A program made the position numbers and the translations under genes. DNA of 13,109 nt. It comes from a virus (taxonomy: Duplodnaviria > Heunggongvirae > Uroviricota > Caudoviricetes). Below, piece after piece: positions 1,958-11,615 of the stretch; positions within the stretch are counted from its first letter, which is position 1; each line of letters opens with the position of its first letter. Below the pieces are notes generated by a model, which had not been told where the DNA came from, searched no databases, and was given only the letters and a program-made list of their open reading frames with translations. Location: the IMG/VR virus record IMGVR_UViG_2917849834_000005, positions 1 to 13,109 of that record, one strand, 5' to 3'.

Positions 1958-4405
1958 TCAACCGTCATGCATCATGCTGGCACGGGCGCGCGCACGTTTA
2001 TCCCGCTCGTATTTTTCGAGCGCATCCTGTAACTGGCGGTCGAGCTGTGTCCCCGGCGCAGTACCACCCGTCAGGCTGATGTGATATTCGTTTTTACTCT
2101 GGTCTACATAAGAGCGGCCAGCCGGTGCCGTGACCGGCTGATAAGCCTGATAACCTGCATAAGAGCTGGTCGCCGGAATATAACCACCGCTGCCATACGT
2201 GGCGGCTTGAGTTCTGGCGGCGGTCTGGTCAAGTGTGTCTGACTCTTTGTTGATAACACCGAGTTTTTCCAGTACCCAGTCAATACCACTGCGCAGTTTG
2301 TTGAACGCATTAAGCGGCAGCATCAACGCGTCAGCCAGTGCCTGCCCGAACATGACGCCCGTGTCACGGCAACGGTTCAGGGTGTCCTGTGTGGCTTTAA
2401 CCGGGGCAATCAGGTTTTTAAACCACTGCCACGCGGCCTGTAACTTGTCGCCCAGCCAGTCAAACAGCGGCTTCAGTGGCGTGAACAGTTCCCCCACCGG
2501 CGCAAATGCCGCTTTCAGCCCTTCAACCACACCGCCAAAGAATGCGCTGACAGGCTCCCAGTATTTACGGATAAGCAACGCCCCGGCGACAATGGCAGCC
2601 ACCACGGCCACAACCGGCCAGCTAATAGCCCCGATGGCGGTCATAACAGCACTGCCAACCGTCGTGAAGATTGCCCCCATTGCGCCTGCTGCCGCGATGA
2701 TGGCATTGATGCCGGTGATAACCGGCCAGGCTACAAGACCAATTGCACCGATGATGCCAATCAGCGCCAGCGCGCCACCGGCAATGATGCCGATGGTTGA
2801 CGCCAGTGATTTGTTTTTCTGGATCCAGCCGTCGAGTTTTAACACATACTTTGTGGCCGTCTGCGTGAGCTTACGCAGTGTACCTTCCTGCTGGTCAAAC
2901 AGGTCAGTCCCCACCGCCTCATAAGCGGACTGAAACTCCTTAAAGTCACCACCGAGGTTATCCTGCATGATTTTAACCAGCTCTTCCGTTTTACCGTCCG
3001 AGGCTTTCAGCGTGGCGGTCAGCTTATCCAGTTTTCCGCTTGCTGCCGCTGCCAGTAAAACGTTCGCTGATTTCAGGGCTTCCTCACCAAAAATGGTTTT
3101 AAGGTATTCCCCCTTCTGAGACGTTCCCAGCTTGTGTTTATCAAAGCTGGCCTGAATCTCTTTCAGAATGGTGAACAACGGACGCATATTTCCCTTTTTG
3201 TCCGAGGTTTTAACGCCAAGCTCTTTGAGTGCATCCCATGCTTTTCCAGTCGGTGCCTGTAATCGGGTGACAATGGCACTGCTACCCGTACCCGCCATTG
3301 ACCCCCTGATGTTATTGTCATGCAGCACACCGGTCATGGCCGCTGCCTGCTCAAGACTTACACCTGCCGTCCTCGCAACCGGGCCGAGGTAAGTCAGTGC
3401 ATCACTGAGACCCTGAAAATCAGCCGCCGACTTATTCATCGTTGCCGACAACACGTCGCCCACATGGCTGACATCATCATTTGACAGTTGAAAGGATGCC
3501 TTAGTCCCCAGCAACAATTGCGCGTTTTCTTCCATCGACCGCTGGTTTGCCAGTGCCATATTCAGTGTGACCGGCGTTGCTGCCTGAATAGCCGCAGCAT
3601 CTCCACCCGCTTTCGCAATGATAATCTGCGCACCGGCCGCATCATCCGCTGAGGCGGCGGTGTTGTCGCCGAGCTGGCGCGCCTGCTTGCGGAGTGCGGT
3701 CATTTCGGCGGAGTCTTTTGCCACTCCGAGCACGGCCTGCAATGCTGAGTTTTTCTGCGCAAACTCATAACCGGGCATCAGCAGCTTAACTCCGGCCATC
3801 GTTCCCGCAGCAGCAATCCCCACACCGGCAGCGCCCACTGAGGCCATATTTCCGGCCAGTTCCTTTCCGGCCTGATAACGCTGTTTGACTGCGTTAAGTT
3901 TTGCCTGTTGCGCACTGACACGCGCCAGCGCGTCGCGCTGACGGTTAAGCTGTGCGGTGGTTTCACTGATACGGTTTTTCAGTCCCTGCTCATCATGTGC
4001 AAGATTGCGGGTATTAATTCCCACAACGGCCAGTTCCCGCTGCTGGCGTTTAACGGAATCCGTCAGGCGGTTATATTTCGCCTGTAAGTCCTCCGCCGCA
4101 CGCTTTGCGGATTCCAGCACTTTCGCCTGAGCACGGGTCGGACGTTCGGTGTTTTTAAACTGTGTGGCAAGGGCTTCGGCTTCCTGCCGTGCCTTTTCAA
4201 GTGCATGACCAGTCACGGCAAGCTGTGCGCTGGTCTTGCGAAATCCCTCAATACGGGATGCGTGACCATTCAGCTCGCGCAGTGATTTTTGTGTTTCCCG
4301 GATATCCCCCGACAGCGACTTACTCGCTGTGCGGATGGATTTAAACGGGCGGGATGCCTGGTCAACAGCCCTGAGCAATACCTGTAATTTTACATTGTTA
4401 CTCAT
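1958..4405 (-). CDS. T: Tail tape measure protein
   Basis: 815-aa ORF with an N-terminal coiled-coil-like region, central Ala/Gly-rich hydrophobic segments and a C-terminal region, typical of tape measure proteins; recognised as P2 gpT. The ATG at 4405..4403 overlaps the E' stop codon. Confidence 0.9.
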   Translation of the reverse strand: MSNNVKLQVLLRAVDQASRPFKSIRTASKSLSGDIRETQKSLRELNGHASRIEGFRKTSAQLAVTGHALEKARQEAEALATQFKNTERPTRAQAKVLESAKRAAEDLQAKYNRLTDSVKRQQRELAVVGINTRNLAHDEQGLKNRISETTAQLNRQRDALARVSAQQAKLNAVKQRYQAGKELAGNMASVGAAGVGIAAAGTMAGVKLLMPGYEFAQKNSALQAVLGVAKDSAEMTALRKQARQLGDNTAASADDAAGAQIIIAKAGGDAAAIQAATPVTLNMALANQRSMEENAQLLLGTKASFQLSNDDVSHVGDVLSATMNKSAADFQGLSDALTYLGPVARTAGVSLEQAAAMTGVLHDNNIRGSMAGTGSSAIVTRLQAPTGKAWDALKELGVKTSDKKGNMRPLFTILKEIQASFDKHKLGTSQKGEYLKTIFGEEALKSANVLLAAAASGKLDKLTATLKASDGKTEELVKIMQDNLGGDFKEFQSAYEAVGTDLFDQQEGTLRKLTQTATKYVLKLDGWIQKNKSLASTIGIIAGGALALIGIIGAIGLVAWPVITGINAIIAAAGAMGAIFTTVGSAVMTAIGAISWPVVAVVAAIVAGALLIRKYWEPVSAFFGGVVEGLKAAFAPVGELFTPLKPLFDWLGDKLQAAWQWFKNLIAPVKATQDTLNRCRDTGVMFGQALADALMLPLNAFNKLRSGIDWVLEKLGVINKESDTLDQTAARTQAATYGSGGYIPATSSYAGYQAYQPVTAPAGRSYVDQSKNEYHISLTGGTAPGTQLDRQLQDALEKYERDKRARARASMMHDG

Positions 4406-5412: not shown

Positions 5413-6603
5413 TTAATTGCTGTTAACCGAAGTGACCAGATTTGCCAGGTATTTATCGGTAATACGCTGGCGCAGGGTCAGGTTTTCGAGAGGAGGCACC
5501 GGTGTATAGTCGTAGTCGATATACAGTTTTCCGGCCTTGAGGGTTTCCGCATCGTTGGATTCTTCGCTGAACCAGCAGGTCGCATCCACGATATAGCCGT
5601 TTGTTTTCAGTTCACGGAATTTGGCATTAATGCCGTCAACGATGTCGCGAATCAGCGTTGCGGTTATGGGCTTATCCACAGCCCACATGTGCGCCTCAGC
5701 CATCGTGTCGGCCAGCACCTGCGCGGTGCGGGTGTAGTTTTCAAAGAGGAACAACGGGTCATCAGAGCAGGTACGGTTACCCCAGAAACGGAAACCGTCA
5801 CGGCGAATCAGCGTTGTGACACCTGACTCGTTCAACAGGTCAGCATCGGTGCCGGACTCCTGCAAATCCCAGAATACAGAGGCACTGATGCCAGTAACAC
5901 CGTTTACCCCGACGTTGGACAGCGTTTTATGCCAGCCCTGCTCCTGGTCGATTTTAGCACGCAGACCCAGCGCACGGGCGGTGGCATACGCGGTGGCAGT
6001 GGTACTGGTGACCGTATCCCATGCGAGGAAATCCGGCCAGATGACCATCAGCTCACGCTGGCTGAAATTCTGGCGGTAGGCTTTCACCTCGGAAATGGTT
6101 TTACAGCCCCATGCGCTGATATACCCGAAAGCGCGCAGCTTCTGACAGACTGATGCCAGTGCAACAGCCACCTCTTTGGTGTCCAGTCCCGGCACACCGA
6201 GAATGCGCGGTTTAACACCGGTTACCGACTCTGCCGCCAGCAGGGCTTTCAGTCCGGTGTACTGACCGTTTTCGTCAGTGGTGCCGATGATATTGGAAAC
6301 GGTCTGCGCGAGTTTCGTTTCCTCGTCGTCGCCGGTGCCGTCTTCCACACGCACGACAACGGTGACCGGTTTTGACTGGTCGGCGATGGCCTGCAACGAT
6401 GCCGCCAGCGTGCCTTTTTTACCGGCCTTTGCAATTGCGCTCTGCACATTGGTAATCAGCACAGGTTTATTGAGGGGGAAGGTTTCCGCATCCGCATCGC
6501 TGGCCGTACAGACCATGCCGACAATGGCAGTGGATACGGTGGAAATGACGCGGGTGCCGTCGTTAATCTCCAGCACCTGCACGCCGTGATGATAGTCACT
6601 CAT
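5413..6603 (-). CDS. FI: Contractile tail sheath protein
   Basis: 396-aa ORF MSDYHHGVQVLEINDGTRVISTVSTAIVGMV... recognised as P2 gpFI. GGAG lies 8 nt upstream of the ATG at 6603; first gene after a 276-bp gap. Confidence 0.92.
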   Translation of the reverse strand: MSDYHHGVQVLEINDGTRVISTVSTAIVGMVCTASDADAETFPLNKPVLITNVQSAIAKAGKKGTLAASLQAIADQSKPVTVVVRVEDGTGDDEETKLAQTVSNIIGTTDENGQYTGLKALLAAESVTGVKPRILGVPGLDTKEVAVALASVCQKLRAFGYISAWGCKTISEVKAYRQNFSQRELMVIWPDFLAWDTVTSTTATAYATARALGLRAKIDQEQGWHKTLSNVGVNGVTGISASVFWDLQESGTDADLLNESGVTTLIRRDGFRFWGNRTCSDDPLFLFENYTRTAQVLADTMAEAHMWAVDKPITATLIRDIVDGINAKFRELKTNGYIVDATCWFSEESNDAETLKAGKLYIDYDYTPVPPLENLTLRQRITDKYLANLVTSVNSN

Positions 6604-6879
6604 CCGTTTAACTCCGTGGTTAATGGGTGAGTGGTATTTTCATGTGTGCCGGAGATGTCAGGCTATTTGTCCCGGTTGGCTGAGGGATGACACAATTTAT
6701 TCTTTGTCGCTGATGAGGCGAATTTTTTATAGAGCGTGGACAGGTCAATATCAAAAATCAGCGCCACACGTTGACGTGATTTCCTCGCAGCCAGCAATCG
6801 TCCTGCCTGTTCCCACGCAGTCGATTATCTGGAGCACTGGAACTGGTCGAAATTTCCAGTGCTCCAGATATTGAATGGC
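6604..6879 (-). promoter_or_regulatory. G-FI intergenic region; expected location of the Ogr-dependent late promoter for the FI-FII-E-T-U-D operon
   Basis: Positional inference from P2 operon organisation. I could not find a canonical TGT-N12-ACA Ogr site; only a reversed ACA-N12-TGT at 6690..6707. Confidence 0.3.
6826..6870 (-). terminator. Strong hairpin (17-bp perfect stem, 11-nt loop) just downstream of the G stop; candidate terminator or stability element for the V-W-J-I-H-G transcript
   Basis: Arms 6826..6842 (TATCTGGAGCACTGGAA) and 6854..6870 are perfectly complementary, checked base by base. No U-rich tract follows on either strand, so this is not a canonical intrinsic terminator. 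Confidence 0.4.
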
Positions 6880-7482
6880 CTACGCCTCCGGCAGTTCAGG
6901 CCAGATAACATCCGGCGCTGTGCTGGTATCTGTTGCTGTCACCGCGTCAATGTAATCCAGCACAGCGTTAAGCCGGGTTGTTTCAGTTTGCGTCAGTTTG
7001 CGCCCGGCCTGCAATTTCAACTGAATCAGACTAATGGAAGCCATTGCGGCATCAATCAGCGACTGGCGCTGTGTTTCTGCCGTCTCTACTGCGACGTAAT
7101 GTTGCTCCTCAGTATCTGTCACCCATTTCTCACCATCCCATTTATCGTATGGCGTTAACGGGGCGATAGTAGTTGTGTTGTCAGGATAGTCGCCCGGTGC
7201 TGTGATTTCTTTGGCGTCACCCGTTTCGGTGTTATAGACGATTTCACCGCGATGGTCTGGCACATATTCCCATGAATTTAAATCCACAGAACGGCAGATT
7301 GCATAACCAGCCTTATGTATACCAGGTGCGTCTAAACAAGAATATGCCGGAATACCGACTCCCACAGCAAGATATTCAGTTGATGAGGAAATATATTCCC
7401 GCGTCTCACTGTCATAGTTGTAAACGATGAGGCTTCCTGCCTGAACGGCAATAAGTTCGTTATTCAATATCGCGTTATCCAT
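6880..7482 (-). CDS. G: Tail fibre assembly protein (chaperone)
   Basis: 200-aa ORF immediately downstream of the tail fibre gene, with its ATG overlapping the H stop (TAATG). Position and size fit P2 gpG / Tfa-family chaperones; the assignment is mostly positional. Confidence 0.8.
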   Translation of the reverse strand: MDNAILNNELIAVQAGSLIVYNYDSETREYISSSTEYLAVGVGIPAYSCLDAPGIHKAGYAICRSVDLNSWEYVPDHRGEIVYNTETGDAKEITAPGDYPDNTTTIAPLTPYDKWDGEKWVTDTEEQHYVAVETAETQRQSLIDAAMASISLIQLKLQAGRKLTQTETTRLNAVLDYIDAVTATDTSTAPDVIWPELPEA

Positions 7483-9122
7483 TATGCAGCTCTCACAATA
7501 TAATTAAATGATGTATTACGTGGTCGCACTGATATCCATGCACTATTAAAACCGTCTTCTGCTGTTTTCTGCGTTCCCGTAATGGAGTTATCAGACGAAG
7601 CTGGAACATAGTTACTGCTGTCGCCAGCTTTAGAATTAGCAGGTATCCCGCTTGTTTGTACTTTATCGGCGGAAGCAAATGCTATCCCCACCTTGACAGA
7701 TGTTGCTGTATCAACCCCGTAATAATCCTGTAACGCTGTACGAATAAAAGTTGCATCCTGACTACTGAGTAGTGATCGTCCACTGTCTACACCGCGTCCA
7801 TCATCCCAGCCACGAATAAACTCACCGCGTAAATCAGGTAATTTTCCGGTGGTGTATACCTTGGCAAGCTCAGGATATTTCACCTTATCAAAGGCAGCAC
7901 CATTGCATTTCAGCCAGCCTGTCGGCGGCGTGGCTGAAGGCCACGAAACAGGTACGCCAACAGGCAATGCAGAGCCTTTCCCCAAACCAAGGTAATCAAG
8001 AACCCCCTGTGTGCTGGTCTTGCCAATAATGGCGCGTCCAACACTTGTCAGTGCGGTTAGCGCAGCACGATCTGCCCCTGAAAAATAAGGGAGTTTATCT
8101 GCTGATGTAGCAAGTCCTGCCAGCGCCGTCAGTGTGGCATCCTTCGGTTGCTTACCCGCAAGTGCGTTAGTCATGGTTGTCGCAAAATTCGGGTCGTTAC
8201 CCAGCGCCGCCGCCAGCTCGTTCAGCGTGTTCAGTGCGTCAGGTGACGAGTCTACAAGTGCGGTAATCGCGGCCATAACATAAGCCGTGCTTGCGATCTG
8301 AGTATTATTAGTACCCTTTGGCGCTGTTGGCGTTGTTGGCGTTCCGGTCAGGGTCGGGCTGTTTAATGGCGCTTTTTTGTTCACTTCATCCATTACCGTC
8401 TTAACAGCTTTTGGCGTCGCTGCCAGCGTTTCAGATGTGCTGTTTGTGGCGCTACTGAGTTGAACAAGGCCTTTTCGTGCCGTAGTCGCATCCTGAGCGG
8501 TATATTTCCCGTTAGCCAGGTCATATGCAGCCTTAACCGCTTTCGGTGTTGCGGCCAGTGTTTCAGATGTGCTGTTGGTTGCACTGCTTAACTGAGTAAA
8601 ACCTTTTGCGATCAGCGAGGCGTCCGGGTGGCGTCGTGACTGTTCGTGCTCAGAAATTTTGTCATCCACATATTTACGTGTTGCCAGTACCACAGCCGGG
8701 TCGATTTTCAGCGTGATGGCTTCGGTGTTCGTGACAACCAGAATCATGCGGATGGTCTGGGTGCGGCCACTGCCTTCCTGTAACTGCGGTTTGTACGTTT
8801 CCGGACAGTTCGCTACCGCAATGAGTACGCCTTCATCATCATAAAGCCCAATCTCACGTATCCAGAATCCGCCCTCGTTTTCAGGGATGATTTGCTCCGC
8901 AATAATCTGGCTCTGGTTGTTCGGGTCAACACTCAGAAGATTCAGCGGCGCGATGCGTTTCTGGTTAATCAGTTTTGTCTGTGCCGGGTCTGGTGTCGGC
9001 AAGACACCATTCGCATCACCAACGGCCATTTGCGTCAGATTCAGCTTACTACCGAGCATCGTCGCGTTAGCCAGCCGTGCCGCGCCCTGATTAGTCAGAA
9101 TGGCGTAGTATTTCACTGTCAT
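7482..9122 (-). CDS. H: Tail fibre protein
   Basis: 546-aa ORF. The N-terminal part (…GGFWIREIGLYDDEGVLIAVAN…SEHEQSRRHPDASL…) is recognised as P2 gpH-like. It has an internal duplicated QLSSATNSTSETLAATPKAVK motif. The C-terminal part carries a collar-type signature GWLKCNGAAFDKVKYPELAKVY…LPDLRGEFIRG. The ATG at 9122 overlaps the I stop (ATGA). Confidence 0.88.
   Translation of the reverse strand: MTVKYYAILTNQGAARLANATMLGSKLNLTQMAVGDANGVLPTPDPAQTKLINQKRIAPLNLLSVDPNNQSQIIAEQIIPENEGGFWIREIGLYDDEGVLIAVANCPETYKPQLQEGSGRTQTIRMILVVTNTEAITLKIDPAVVLATRKYVDDKISEHEQSRRHPDASLIAKGFTQLSSATNSTSETLAATPKAVKAAYDLANGKYTAQDATTARKGLVQLSSATNSTSETLAATPKAVKTVMDEVNKKAPLNSPTLTGTPTTPTAPKGTNNTQIASTAYVMAAITALVDSSPDALNTLNELAAALGNDPNFATTMTNALAGKQPKDATLTALAGLATSADKLPYFSGADRAALTALTSVGRAIIGKTSTQGVLDYLGLGKGSALPVGVPVSWPSATPPTGWLKCNGAAFDKVKYPELAKVYTTGKLPDLRGEFIRGWDDGRGVDSGRSLLSSQDATFIRTALQDYYGVDTATSVKVGIAFASADKVQTSGIPANSKAGDSSNYVPASSDNSITGTQKTAEDGFNSAWISVRPRNTSFNYIVRAA
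8400..8603 (-). repeat. Intragenic direct repeat in H: two copies of a ~72-bp unit encoding G(F/L)(T/V)QLSSATNSTSETLAATPKAVK
   Basis: Copy 1 is aa 174..197 (8532..8603), copy 2 is aa 218..241 (8400..8471). The amino-acid sequence is near-identical; the nucleotide copies differ at mostly synonymous positions. Confidence 0.85.
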
Positions 9123-9730
9123 GCGTTTACTCTCAGGTTATCAATGAAATGAATGACCGAGGCCGGGAAATAATTCCCTCCGACAATAATGGCCTCCGGG
9201 GTGTAGGGATAAATCGTCAGGGCGTCGCCGTGATAGCATCCCGCACCGGCAAAAATGTTGCCGGTTGTACTTAAGCTGATAGCCAGTCCCGTCAGATGGC
9301 GGCTCGCCGGTTTTGCATCAGCAACGAGACGCTCCAGTTCCTGATACATTTCCTCGGTAATACCCTGCTCAAGCACGCCAACAACGATACGGAACGTCCC
9401 CGGCTCCTCGTTGAGCTGCCACCACTCCCTTACCTCAATCAGATAGCCAAGCGGCTCCACCACACGGCGAATCGCACCAATAGTGCCCTTATGGCAGTGA
9501 ATGAAATACGCATCGCGGATAACAGCGCGTTTTGTCGCTTCCGGCCACTTATCATCCCAGCGGTCAACCGAAAACGCCCACGCCAGCCACGGCAACAGAT
9601 TTGCCGGGCAGGTGTCCGGGTTCCACAGCTCACGAATACTGACCGGCGTTTTTTCAATTTCCGCACAGGCTTTCGCGGCGGCGACCTCAAGCGGTGATGA
9701 GCCGGTCGGCAGCAGGCGCGAATCACTCAT
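9119..9730 (-). CDS. I: Baseplate/tail protein I
   Basis: 203-aa ORF MSDSRLLPTGSSPLEVAAAKACAEIEKTP... between J and H, overlapping J at its start (9723..9730) and H at its stop (ATGA). Assigned as P2 gpI family by position and recalled similarity. Confidence 0.85.
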   Translation of the reverse strand: MSDSRLLPTGSSPLEVAAAKACAEIEKTPVSIRELWNPDTCPANLLPWLAWAFSVDRWDDKWPEATKRAVIRDAYFIHCHKGTIGAIRRVVEPLGYLIEVREWWQLNEEPGTFRIVVGVLEQGITEEMYQELERLVADAKPASRHLTGLAISLSTTGNIFAGAGCYHGDALTIYPYTPEAIIVGGNYFPASVIHFIDNLRVNA

Positions 9731-10635: not shown

Positions 10636-10983
10636 TCAACTCACAGGGATGGTTAACGAAAGTGGCTGGCCGGTGTCGTTGTGCTGGCCGGTTAACGTAA
10701 CTGTCATTCGCCCGTCAAAACTGCGCGCCGTGGTGACGGATGACAGGGTGACGCGGGGTTCCCATTTCAGCACTGCCATGTAACAGGCGACCTTAATCTG
10801 CAACTCAAGCGCCGGGGTCTGCGGCTGGTCAATCATTGACGCCAGCAACGAGCCGTAATCACGACGCATCACCCGTGAACCGACTGGCGTGCGCAGGATA
10901 TCGCCGATACTCTGGCTGATATGTTCAAGGTCAGTGGCAGTCAGGCCATCACTGCGATTCATTCCGAGATAACGCGCTGTCAT
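10636..10983 (-). CDS. W: Baseplate protein W (gp25-like)
   Basis: 115-aa ORF MTARYLGMNRSDGLTATDLEHISQSIGDILRTPVGSRVMRRDYGS... recognised as P2 gpW. The ATG at 10983 overlaps the V stop (ATGA). Confidence 0.9.
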   Translation of the reverse strand: MTARYLGMNRSDGLTATDLEHISQSIGDILRTPVGSRVMRRDYGSLLASMIDQPQTPALELQIKVACYMAVLKWEPRVTLSSVTTARSFDGRMTVTLTGQHNDTGQPLSLTIPVS

Positions 10984-11615
10984 AGAGGACTCCCGGTTGT
11001 GCCGCCGCTGTCGCCGGGGTGTTTATGGGTATGCAGTACCTTACCGTTTGATGAGAGTTCACCGCCGGTGTGTTCAATGTTGCCGCGCATCGTCCCGCCC
11101 TTCTGCACTTCCAGCGTGCCGGTGATCAGCTTGTTTGTGCAGACCACCTCCGGCGTGTCCAGAGTGACACGGGTTGATGCTTTCACCGTGACCACCGGCA
11201 CCGTGGCAGTAACAGAATCAGAAGCCGTCACGCTGGCCGTTTTAATTCCGCTTACCGTGAGTGCACTGGTTTCAGGTTCATACTCAATCACCGCCCCGTC
11301 AGGGAAACGGATATGCAGGGCATCCGCCGACGCAGACGGCGCGGGGTTATCACCGGAATAAATCCCCGGCAGAACGAACGCCGTGTCGAGTTCACCGCCC
11401 ACGGCCAGAATCAGCACCTGTTCCCCCACGGAAGGTGCCCACCATGTGCGCGAACGACCGGCGCGCTGGGTCAGCCACTTCAGCCAGTCGGTGCACATGC
11501 CGCCGGTCTGCACACGGCAGCGACCGGCGTTAAGGTCGGTTTCGACGACAAGGCCGGTGCGAATCATGTTGCGCAGTGCGCGCGCGAGTTCCTGAATATT
11601 TGCGAGAGTGTTCAT
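10980..11615 (-). CDS. V: Baseplate central spike / assembly protein V
   Basis: 211-aa ORF MNTLANIQELARALRNMIRTGLVVETDLNAGRCRVQTGG... recognised as P2 gpV. ATG at 11615; no obvious Shine-Dalgarno sequence upstream. Confidence 0.9.
   Translation of the reverse strand: MNTLANIQELARALRNMIRTGLVVETDLNAGRCRVQTGGMCTDWLKWLTQRAGRSRTWWAPSVGEQVLILAVGGELDTAFVLPGIYSGDNPAPSASADALHIRFPDGAVIEYEPETSALTVSGIKTASVTASDSVTATVPVVTVKASTRVTLDTPEVVCTNKLITGTLEVQKGGTMRGNIEHTGGELSSNGKVLHTHKHPGDSGGTTGSPL

Follow-up and report, generated by a model that had tools for sequence, protein, structure and literature searches.

Results

The window, by which we mean the whole 13,109-nucleotide stretch of DNA analysed here, carries the tail-fibre gene H (7482-9122, (-), 546 aa) and the tail-fibre assembly chaperone gene G, of TfaE type (6880-7482, (-), 200 aa), of a P2-like (Peduoviridae) prophage of Escherichia sp. 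E4702, both with the reading frames and lengths given in a preliminary description of this DNA. H is identified from its translated reading frame together with Pfam matches to Phage_tail_fib, Phage_fiber_2 (twice) and Collar, and G from its match to Caudo_TAP. G lies immediately downstream of H and is translationally coupled to it, the H stop codon and the G ATG sharing one base at 7482. The open reading frame map and the Pfam domains of the neighbours give the gene order V-W-J-I-H-G-FI-FII-E-T-U-D-ogr, so that in the late operon H has I before it and G after it, with FI next, as in the P2 family. The reference P2 proteins have 669 aa (gpH) and 175 aa (gpG), in agreement with the preliminary description. 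A protein identical to H stands in the database as 'phage tail-collar fiber domain-containing protein [Escherichia sp. E4702]'; the mosaic described below is of a known kind throughout, and public-database annotation of it is already present.

H had been proposed to join a P2-like N-terminus to a collar-type C-terminal region. BLASTP against P2 gpH agrees with this, returning one ungapped match (aa 26-380, 75% identity) and nothing past aa 380, so that collinearity with P2 stops there; H is nevertheless a finer mosaic than was proposed. Its first 152 residues (8667-9122, (-)) form the baseplate-attachment domain, with a full-length profile match to Phage_tail_fib (PF12571) at aa 1-150 (E 5e-62, Pfam with curated cut-offs), in keeping with the likeness to the attachment part of P2-family gpH that had been noted. 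By Pfam and identity this domain is a KC618326-type allele, not a P2-type one, being 99-100% identical to KC618326 H compared with 54% to P2, and about 97% compared with about 50% at the DNA level. The allele is common to the window and KC618326 along with the C-terminal half of gpI, and in both parts P2 has a different allele.

The shaft that follows (aa 153-335; 8118-8666, (-)) is a P2-type segment with two Phage_fiber_2 repeats (SSATNSTSETLAATPKAVK) at aa 179-197 and aa 223-241, and its DNA contains a 76-nt direct repeat (8400-8475 and 8532-8607). It is 95% identical in amino acids to P2 gpH and 50% to KC618326, with DNA 85-95% identical to P2; judged by these identities, the shaft rather than the N-terminal attachment domain is the part of H closest to P2. 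Between the shaft and the crossover site described below lies a linker (aa 336-380; 7983-8117, (-)) that by identity is P2-homologous but diverged: identity is 56% to P2, 91% to the prophage L006 (GCA_030346215.1) and 62% to a fibre encoded by a 92-kb phage-plasmid.

From about aa 381 onwards collar-type motifs had been noted, and all three are present: GWLKCNG (aa 402-408), YPEL (aa 416-419) and LPDLRGEF (aa 428-435). They lie in the N-terminal part of the C-terminal region, aa 381-460 (7743-7982, (-)), which is assigned to the Collar domain (PF07484) by Pfam, phmmer, AF2 and Foldseek. The Pfam match covers aa 389-436 (54.5 bits vs a cut-off of 24), and phmmer relates the collar to the T4 gp37 tip (2XGF, E 2.6e-14) and to the short tail fibre 9CUY (E 2e-14). 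We modelled aa 375-546 with AF2 as a monomer (mean pLDDT 63), and a Foldseek search with this model ranked T4 gp37/gp12 first (2XGF: E 1.3e-6, prob 1.0, TM 0.39), the TM being low because the tip is poorly modelled. The monomer is confident solely in the collar core (pLDDT 81-90 at model residues 11-50, which are H aa 385-424) and in the last strand (about 79), and the tip is weakly modelled.

That tip, aa 461-531 (7530-7742, (-)), is a hypervariable distal insert recognised by homologue comparison and presumed to contact the receptor. Among 120 homologues whose N-terminus and shaft are 92-99% identical, aa 466-531 range from 0 to 95% identity, and GC is down to 0.43-0.47 across the tip and the 5' half of G. 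Of 5,426 E. coli genomes, only 10 have the window's tip allele; in E. coli ECONIH4 and a 92-kb phage-plasmid it lies silent, as a cassette on the opposite strand. Residues 381-546 of H contain no histidine, and neither the HxH motif of gp37 nor the Zn-site motif of gp12 is found there. The protein ends in a conserved C-terminal strand, aa 532-546 (RPRNTSFNYIVRAA; 7485-7529, (-)), which matches the C-terminus of T4 gp37, aligning with 'KNIAFNYIVRLA', and is 67-100% conserved over homologues carrying unrelated tips. We picture H as passing from a baseplate-docking N-terminal domain through a P2-type repeat shaft to a gp37/gp12-like Collar scaffold, from which the chain would exit to make a hypervariable distal tip of about 70 residues and then come back as the conserved C-terminal strand. 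The end of H would have a trimeric, gp37-like topology, and aa 461-531 would be the part that binds the receptor.

The P2-like part of H ends at YLGLG (aa 377-381), inside a single orphan crossover-site sequence of Pin/Gin/Cin type, TTCTTGATTACC-TT-GGTTTGGGGAAA (7977-8002, (-)), which overlaps the DYLGLG codons. This sequence aligns with the repeats of KC618326, e14 and L006, in L006 at the same codons. KC618326 has perfect 31-nt inverted repeats, one within H, where it encodes GLLAYLGLGE, and the other beside its invertase, and L006 and e14 have the same repeats in the same place. Within the 13.1-kb window there is no second copy of the site with up to 3 mismatches allowed, nor any match to the generic palindromic core AAACCNNGGTTT with up to 1 mismatch; the left half of the window's site has drifted (TTACC), and it is for this reason recognised only via the KC618326 repeats. 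Read from these alignments, the junction at aa 377-382 corresponds to an invertase crossover site and would not be an arbitrary breakpoint.

Alternatively, the chimera might have arisen by ordinary homologous recombination in the conserved linker or collar, with the coincidence at the crossover site merely reflecting a conserved stretch. We regard this as a serious possibility, while leaning against it. DNA identity to P2 declines gradually between aa ~335 and 380, from 78% to 50% across the linker, and on account of this fading homologous recombination in the linker could have contributed as much to the shaft junction as an invertase did. Other junctions, at aa ~100 of I, at aa ~152 of H and at the tip edges (~460 and 531), have no crossover site and must be homologous or illegitimate exchanges. 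Between conserved flanks, moreover, the tip inserts are exchanged without regard to G. Such recombination would not, however, readily account for the precision seen elsewhere: silent ORFs of 165-188 aa in many genomes turn homologous exactly at '(N/Y)LGLGEGSALP', other fibres in which the same module is joined to unrelated upstream sequence switch to homology at the same LGLG codons, and intact-invertase loci have perfect 31-nt or near-perfect 18-21-nt inverted repeats at that very spot.

The chaperone belongs with the cassette rather than with P2. Caudo_TAP (PF02413) matches G at aa 78-199 (E 1e-30, 107 bits vs a Pfam cut-off of 22.1), and for a protein identical to G both Caudo_TAP_N and Caudo_TAP are precomputed. 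Over its whole 200 aa G is 85% identical to K-12 e14 TfaE, and its identity to KC618326 G is 88%, compared with 27% to P2 gpG over the last 67 aa only (E 0.004), in line with the earlier suggestion that the H and G pair is the most likely place for a difference from P2. A variable N-terminal half (aa 1-105; window 7168-7482) is followed by a conserved helical C-terminal half (aa 106-200), and among relatives of the collar cassette the two are 30-90% and 57-93% identical, respectively. In an AF2 monomer (mean pLDDT 63) beta strands at aa 2-122, of low confidence, precede helices at aa 125-158 and 165-183 (pLDDT 84-89). A sequence search of solved structures with G, the 5YVQ chains included, gave no match, and a fold search with the G model gave nothing significant (best E 0.6). 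The modelled beta-plus-helical plan fits the published Tfa architecture, in which a variable N-terminal fibre-binding domain is joined to conserved C-terminal trimerising helices (PMC9608196). G is a two-domain Tfa chaperone of e14 TfaE type, with a putative chaperone activity by which it would trimerise and fold the distal end of H.

G had been described as matching the C-terminal region of the fibre. This stands at the level of the cassette and fails at the level of the tip itself: one G type (78-93% identical) is found with at least 4 unrelated tip inserts, and a similar collar can pair with a different G N-domain. The strict co-variation of G and tip that we had expected is thus not supported by the data, and contact between the N-domain of G and the tip becomes uncertain, since the co-variation is not clean. 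We speculate, with rather little confidence, that chaperones of TfaE type may act as generalists, binding to the scaffold of collar and C-terminal strand, which is conserved, and not to the hypervariable tip. If so, recombination between conserved flanks could swap tip inserts (aa 461-531) with the chaperone unchanged, a second and finer level of host-range shuffling would be nested in the classical invertible cassette, and the scaffold together with G would be a handy chassis for engineering receptor specificity.

A different division of labour is also conceivable, in which host recognition comes largely from G, kept at the tip of the fibre and acting there as an adhesin or a subunit that binds a co-receptor, so that the H tip would not be the sole determinant. 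Mu Tfa reportedly stays on the mature fibre and adds to receptor recognition (PMC9608196), the N-terminal half of G is itself variable among relatives, and the low GC spans both the tip and the 5' half of G. We nonetheless judge such a role for G to be unlikely, given that hypervariability is sharpest in H aa 461-531, that the same G type accompanies unrelated tips and that P2-type gpG is generally taken to be an assembly factor.

Downstream of G lie the remains of two further genes. The first, overlapping the G stop codon at 6823-6908 (+), is an 86-nt scar comprising the last ~29 codons, with a 1-nt frameshift, of a second, convergent chaperone gene, G'. It aligns with the 3' ends of KC618326 G' and e14 tfaP, its translation ending ...ALELVEISSAPDIEWPTPPAVQAR vs ...ALELVDTSGAPDIEWPTPPAVQAR in KC618326, each followed by a stop, and PGAP calls the same fragment a pseudogene in E. 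coli 3908. The second (6663-6822, (-); translation AWEQAGRLLAARKSRQRVALIFDIDLSTLYKK) is the C-terminal HTH end of a serine DNA invertase of the Pin/Gin family, of which only the last ~50 codons remain and the N-terminal ~130 are deleted. It is 59% identical over 34 aa to the C-terminus of PinE (E 2e-13), its DNA is 95% identical to the 3' end of the KC618326 invertase, and in E. coli 3908 PGAP names it 'DNA-invertase, incomplete', a pseudogene. Next to the cassette there is no intact serine invertase, only this remnant, and no oppositely oriented alternative tip, Hv'; of G' only the frameshifted end is present. Also in this region is a perfect 17-bp inverted repeat with an 11-nt loop (6826-6870), 10 nt past the G stop and derived from the G' coding remnant; in its 91-nt context the RNA fold has -45 kcal/mol and z = -6.3, and the hairpin is imperfect in relatives with intact G'. 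We considered it as an intrinsic terminator and rejected it, as it has no U-tract and is not called by a consensus scan. A weaker terminator-like site is present at 6776-6762 (-), inside the invertase scar.

With pseudogene scars for neighbours, and a 22.6-kb contig as the only available source sequence, H and G might be suspected of being decaying relics without function in a defective prophage. We find this quite improbable: H and G themselves, like every tail and baseplate gene called on the contig, are full-length and carry the Pfam domains expected of them, the deletion took accessory functions only, and close H homologues at 90-95% identity are kept in many genomes.

The two scars meet at a deletion joint (6822-6823), defined by BLASTN and a three-way alignment, at which 1,264 bp of KC618326 are missing, namely the alternative tip Hv' and the greater part of both the invertase and G'. 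In BLASTN, window 6401-6823 corresponds to positions 1302-1724, and window 6823-7526 to positions 2988-3692, of the KC618326 locus (L001). The source is a draft contig and assemblers can be confused by invertible repeats, but the chance that the joint is an artefact of draft-genome assembly is negligible, as the identical joint occurs in E. coli 3908, 29 of 5,426 complete E. coli genomes carry the joint at 98.3% identity and an independent Logan assembly has the same H-G.

Discussion

Taken together, the locus is very probably a modular P2-like fibre with its Tfa chaperone in which the stretch from YLGLG to the end of G is half of an invertible host-range cassette, locked by a 1.26-kb deletion. 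The YLGLG codons (aa 377-381) to the end of G would represent one half of a cassette of Mu-G / P1-C / e14-P type. In intact relatives a serine invertase flips the Hv-G-G'-Hv' segment between two inverted crossover sites, one of which lies within H at precisely this position. A deletion of 1.26 kb in the prophage lineage took away the invertase's catalytic domain together with the alternative tip and the greater part of the chaperone that goes with it, which would have locked the fibre in one specificity and frozen a formerly invertible switch. The domain content and breakpoints, the homology of the crossover site, the scars and the deletion joint with its recurrence are directly observed, and descent of the lineage from an invertible L006-like ancestor is what we infer from them. 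Experiments have shown that P2-like E. coli prophages can carry invertible tail-fibre loci (PMC4272514).

Having lost its host-range switch to a defined deletion of 1.26 kb, the prophage lineage is predicted to have one fixed specificity. The practical yield of the analysis is a residue-level map of the fibre modules and the recognition of the breakpoint as a putative invertase crossover site, together with a hint of tip inserts moving separately from the chaperone. The tail-fibre genes of P2 have reportedly been described as mosaic since 1992, with distal fibre parts exchanged horizontally along with their chaperones. The locus is, in this sense, textbook phage host-range shuffling; it is not new and has little import beyond annotation.

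Among known systems, the T4 gp37 tip (2XGF) and gp12 and other short tail fibres (1OCY, 5IV5, 9CUY) provide the homologous collar and the best fold matches, and the gp37 C-terminal strand '...FNYIVR(A/L)A' matches that of H. The shaft of gp37 is unrelated, however, and the distal insert of H is much shorter and has no histidine, so it has no counterpart of the iron-binding HxH needle found in gp37; where T4 has the chaperones gp38 and gp57A, the window has a Tfa. The G segment of Mu (S/U, S'/U', Gin) follows the same logic: a crossover site inside the ORF separates the constant part of the fibre from a variable tip, which comes with its Tfa, and there is a serine invertase. Mu Tfa (PDB 5YVQ) has the same modular plan as G, with no sequence match between them, and Mu S shares the Phage_fiber_2 repeat with H, a match limited to that repeat and not extending to the collar module. 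No inversion is possible in the window.

P2 gpH and gpG occupy the same position in the V-W-J-I-H-G operon, and gpH has the same N-terminal Pfam domain. Identity to gpH is 54% in the attachment domain, 95% in the shaft and 56% in the linker, with none beyond; at the same codons P2 has a vestigial crossover-like sequence (...EYLGL), after which its C-terminus (aa 382-669) is unrelated to that of H and has no Collar domain. Homology between the two G proteins is confined to the last ~67 aa.

Much closer are the P2-like phage KC618326 ('Peduovirus magyaro') and the prophage L006, which have a P2-type H, an intact Hv-G-G'-Hv'-invertase segment and the same gene order as the window. KC618326 shares with the window an identical H N-terminal domain and an identical gpI, with G at 88% and the flanks at 95% identity; over the six segments of H, from N-terminus to terminal strand, its identity is 99/50/22/80/14/80%. 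L006 has the same 546-aa architecture, with 99/92/91/80/75/87% over the same segments, and its crossover repeats lie at the same codons. Unlike both, the window is without the 1,264 bp and as a consequence cannot invert.

A further parallel is the e14 element of K-12, with its invertible P segment (stfE/tfaE/tfaP/stfP(ycfK)) and PinE. Besides the likeness of G to TfaE, StfE is 53% identical to H aa 378-546 overall, with 78% in the collar and 80% in the last 15 aa, and has an unrelated tip (20%). The two also share the crossover-site core CCTTGGTTTGGG(A/G)(G/A)AA, the invertase scar resembles the C-terminus of PinE, and the convergent Tfa genes overlap alike. The window differs in having no functional invertase, second crossover site or alternative cassette; yet e14 is a cryptic remnant, whereas in the window the cassette is joined to a P2-type fibre that is complete and belongs to a tail operon that appears intact.

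The tail region and its fibre genes

The ORF map and Pfam place the late tail genes of a P2-like prophage on the minus strand of the window, in the order R/S, V (10980-11615), W, J, I (9119-9730), H (7482-9122) and G (6880-7482), then a 277-bp gap, FI (5413-6603), FII, E, T, U and D. An identical H protein is encoded on contig PDIA01000060.1 of Escherichia sp. E4702 (GCA_004745155.1), with ogr and host genes coming next. Existing annotation names H a "phage tail-collar fiber domain-containing protein" and G a "tail fiber assembly protein". The G ATG overlaps the H stop codon, and ORF calls and translation gave the lengths claimed in the preliminary description (546 and 200 aa); the sizes it gave for reference P2 gpH and gpG (669 and 175 aa) were also right.

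H matches Phage_tail_fib at aa 1-150 (5e-62), Phage_fiber_2 twice, and Collar at aa 389-436 (54.5 bits, cut-off 24), and G matches Caudo_TAP. The PF12571, PF03406 and PF07484 architecture is precomputed in all 120 homologues listed of 8,000 matches. The claimed collar motifs lie at aa 402-408, 416-419 and 428-435. We note that both Phage_fiber_2 repeats, each containing SSATNSTSETLAATPKAVK, are coded by a 76-nt direct repeat (8400-8475 and 8532-8607, 78% identical), a potential substrate for changes in shaft repeat number. Over the H tip and 5' half of G (7000-8000) GC content is 0.43-0.47, as compared to 0.52-0.58 for the remaining tail operon, a drop that fits a foreign source for the cassette.

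Mosaic structure of H and gpI

Sliding-window DNA and segment-wise protein identities were compared with P2, phage KC618326 ("Peduovirus magyaro") and L006, a prophage with an intact invertible cassette. J and gpI aa 1 to ~95 are common to P2 and KC618326 (at least 93% DNA identity to each), whereas gpI aa ~100-203 and the H attachment domain (aa 1-152) are ~97% identical in DNA to KC618326 and ~50% to P2 (protein, 99% and 54%). The shaft (aa 153-335) is P2-type, with 95% amino acid identity to P2 and 50% to KC618326, and the linker (aa 336-380) is 56% identical to P2, 22% to KC618326 and 91% to L006. Beyond aa 380 P2 gpH, in which no Collar domain was found, has no alignment with H; the collar (aa 381-460) is 80% identical to KC618326 and 78% to e14 StfE, the tip (aa 461-531) 14% to KC618326 and 75% to L006, and the final strand (aa 532-546) 80% to KC618326 and 80-100% in most collar-type relatives. 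P2 gpG shares 27% identity with G, confined to the last 67 residues.

The observation of a mosaic H/G pair is thus confirmed: full-length collinearity with P2 is absent, and the collar-type module proposed from about aa 381 is borne out by the Collar match and the end of the P2 alignment at aa 380. Its P2-like N-terminus holds in that aa 26-380 align to P2 gpH ungapped, but aa 1-152 are only 54% identical to P2 and are KC618326-type. Among the 120 homologues listed of 8,000 matches, identity was 96-99% for the N-terminus, ~92% for the shaft (~63% in a second shaft type), 66-93% for the collar, 0 to 95% for the tip (aa 466-531) and 67-100% for the final strand, a segment pattern matching the window's mosaic.

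Together with the H N-terminal domain, the gpI C-terminal half, which has a 28-aa extension that P2 gpI lacks, forms a single block (8667-9440). This suggests exchange as a unit, perhaps from mutual contact at the baseplate. The same H domain and gpI/gpJ set also occurs in the L006-L008 prophages, with a downstream gene order unlike P2: after the invertase come gpU and a tape-measure gene on the opposite strand, and DUF2635 or the oppositely oriented gpU/tape-measure pair adjoins it. This points to movement of the baseplate-fibre module itself from one tail backbone to another.

A crossover site at the breakpoint

Besides H and G, KC618326 encodes a second, convergent Tfa (G'), an alternative tip cassette that has no promoter (Hv', Gp53-like_C type) and a serine invertase, with perfect 31-nt inverted repeats, one adjoining the invertase and one within H coding GLLAYLGLGE. 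L006 and K-12 e14 share these repeats at the corresponding position. In the window a relative of this site, TTCTTGATTACC-TT-GGTTTGGGGAAA (7977-8002), overlaps the DYLGLG codons (YLGLG being aa 377-381); the P2 resemblance of H stops exactly there, and P2 has a vestigial version at the corresponding spot. A generic palindrome search did not pick up this site. These alignments identify the H breakpoint as an invertase crossover site.

Querying with the C-terminal module returned many ORFs of 165-188 aa whose homology starts exactly at "(N/Y)LGLGEGSALP" behind unrelated leader residues, and fibres with the module on entirely different upstream sequence. In E. coli ECONIH4 the window's tip allele forms a silent cassette on the opposite strand (96% tip identity), and a 92-kb phage-plasmid carries it in its fibre (82%). 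The module that starts at LGLG and extends through G therefore belongs with the portable cassettes of the Mu-G, P1-C and e14-P type.

Loss of the switch

At 6822/6823 the 3'-most ~64 nt of the invertase gene of KC618326 abut the 3'-most ~57 nt of G', before the G stop codon, and 1,264 bp of KC618326 are missing. The invertase remnant reads AWEQAGRLLAARKSRQRVALIFDIDLSTLYKK, which is the C-terminal helix-turn-helix and shares 59% identity with PinE (E 2e-13), and the G' remnant (6823-6908, plus strand) ends …ALELVEISSAPDIEWPTPPAVQAR* following a 1-nt frameshift. Only one crossover-site copy lies within the window, so inversion of its segment should no longer be possible. E. coli strain 3908 has the identical joint, with both fragments PGAP-annotated as pseudogenes, and the joint is present in 29 of 5,426 complete E. 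coli genomes; this recurrence rules out an assembly error, and the joint is therefore the inherited scar of a prophage lineage.

Other switches may have been lost as well. The annotated KC618326 invertase (1659-2153 of that locus, 165 aa) departs from PinE and the L006 invertase after ~aa 128 and has no in-frame helix-turn-helix; it appears frameshifted, so the switch of that phage may be inactive too, its perfect 31-nt repeats notwithstanding. On plasmid p92_MLI108-2 (NZ_CP116996.1, a ~92-kb phage-plasmid; L010 3456-5436) the same tip and 200-aa Tfa cassette sits on a 312-aa fibre, with the recombinase and second Tfa annotated as truncated pseudogenes, in what looks like an independent frozen switch.

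At 6826-6870, 10 nt past the G stop codon, the G' coding remnant has given rise to a perfect inverted repeat of 17 bp around an 11-nt loop; it is imperfect where relatives keep an intact G', and in E. coli 3908 it contains one bulge. The hairpin is very stable (z = -6.3) without a U-tract, and could be a candidate mRNA 3' stabiliser. Within the invertase scar, ~100 nt downstream of G, a terminator-like hairpin and T-run (CGTCAACGTGTGGCG CTGATTTTTG; 6762-6776, minus strand) could now terminate the V-to-G operon.

The chaperone and the fibre tip

G is 85% identical to e14 TfaE, and no solved-structure relative was found by sequence or fold. In its model the N-terminal half is beta-rich and the C-terminal half has two long helices predicted with confidence. 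This matches the Tfa layout described in PMC9608196, where a variable N-domain binds the fibre and a conserved helical domain trimerises. As for G being a matching chaperone, H from aa 381 onward and G are replaced jointly relative to P2, which supports linkage at the level of the cassette. A residue-level match of G to the tip is unsupported: within the collar family, KC618326, E. coli 3908 and e14 combine the same G type (78-93% identical) with unrelated tips, and the L008 prophage has a similar collar (81%) yet a different G N-terminal half (30%).

By homology, the H N-terminal domain would anchor a trimeric fibre to the baseplate, and a putative gpI-gpH contact fits the co-replacement of their adjoining parts. 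In sequence the collar region resembles the tip of T4 gp37 (2XGF, E 2.6e-14) and the short tail fibre 9CUY (2e-14). At the very C-terminus of H, "…FNYIVRAA" aligns with gp37 "…FNYIVRLA", and Foldseek with an AF2 model of the H C-terminus ranked gp37 and gp12 top. In the inferred gp37-like topology the chain would exit the collar, make a short distal tip (aa 461-531) and come back. The AF2 monomer could not model the tip fold. The tip contains no histidines, so it lacks the gp37 iron-binding needle. As the sole hypervariable stretch, it is the leading candidate for contacting the receptor.

Relation to known systems

The testable features of a P2-family gpH with a Tfa chaperone were found, except collinearity with the P2 H C-terminus, and the locus lacks three of the four features of an invertible segment; it should be called a decayed derivative of one. 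Haggard-Ljungquist et al. (1992) reportedly described horizontal exchange of P2 tail-fibre genes. Inversion in P2-like prophages is likewise established (PMC4272514). The finding of an H/G mosaic is correct but ordinary. The closest characterised system to the window's cassette is the e14 P segment with PinE; nearest among phages are KC618326 and the L006-type prophages with intact switches.
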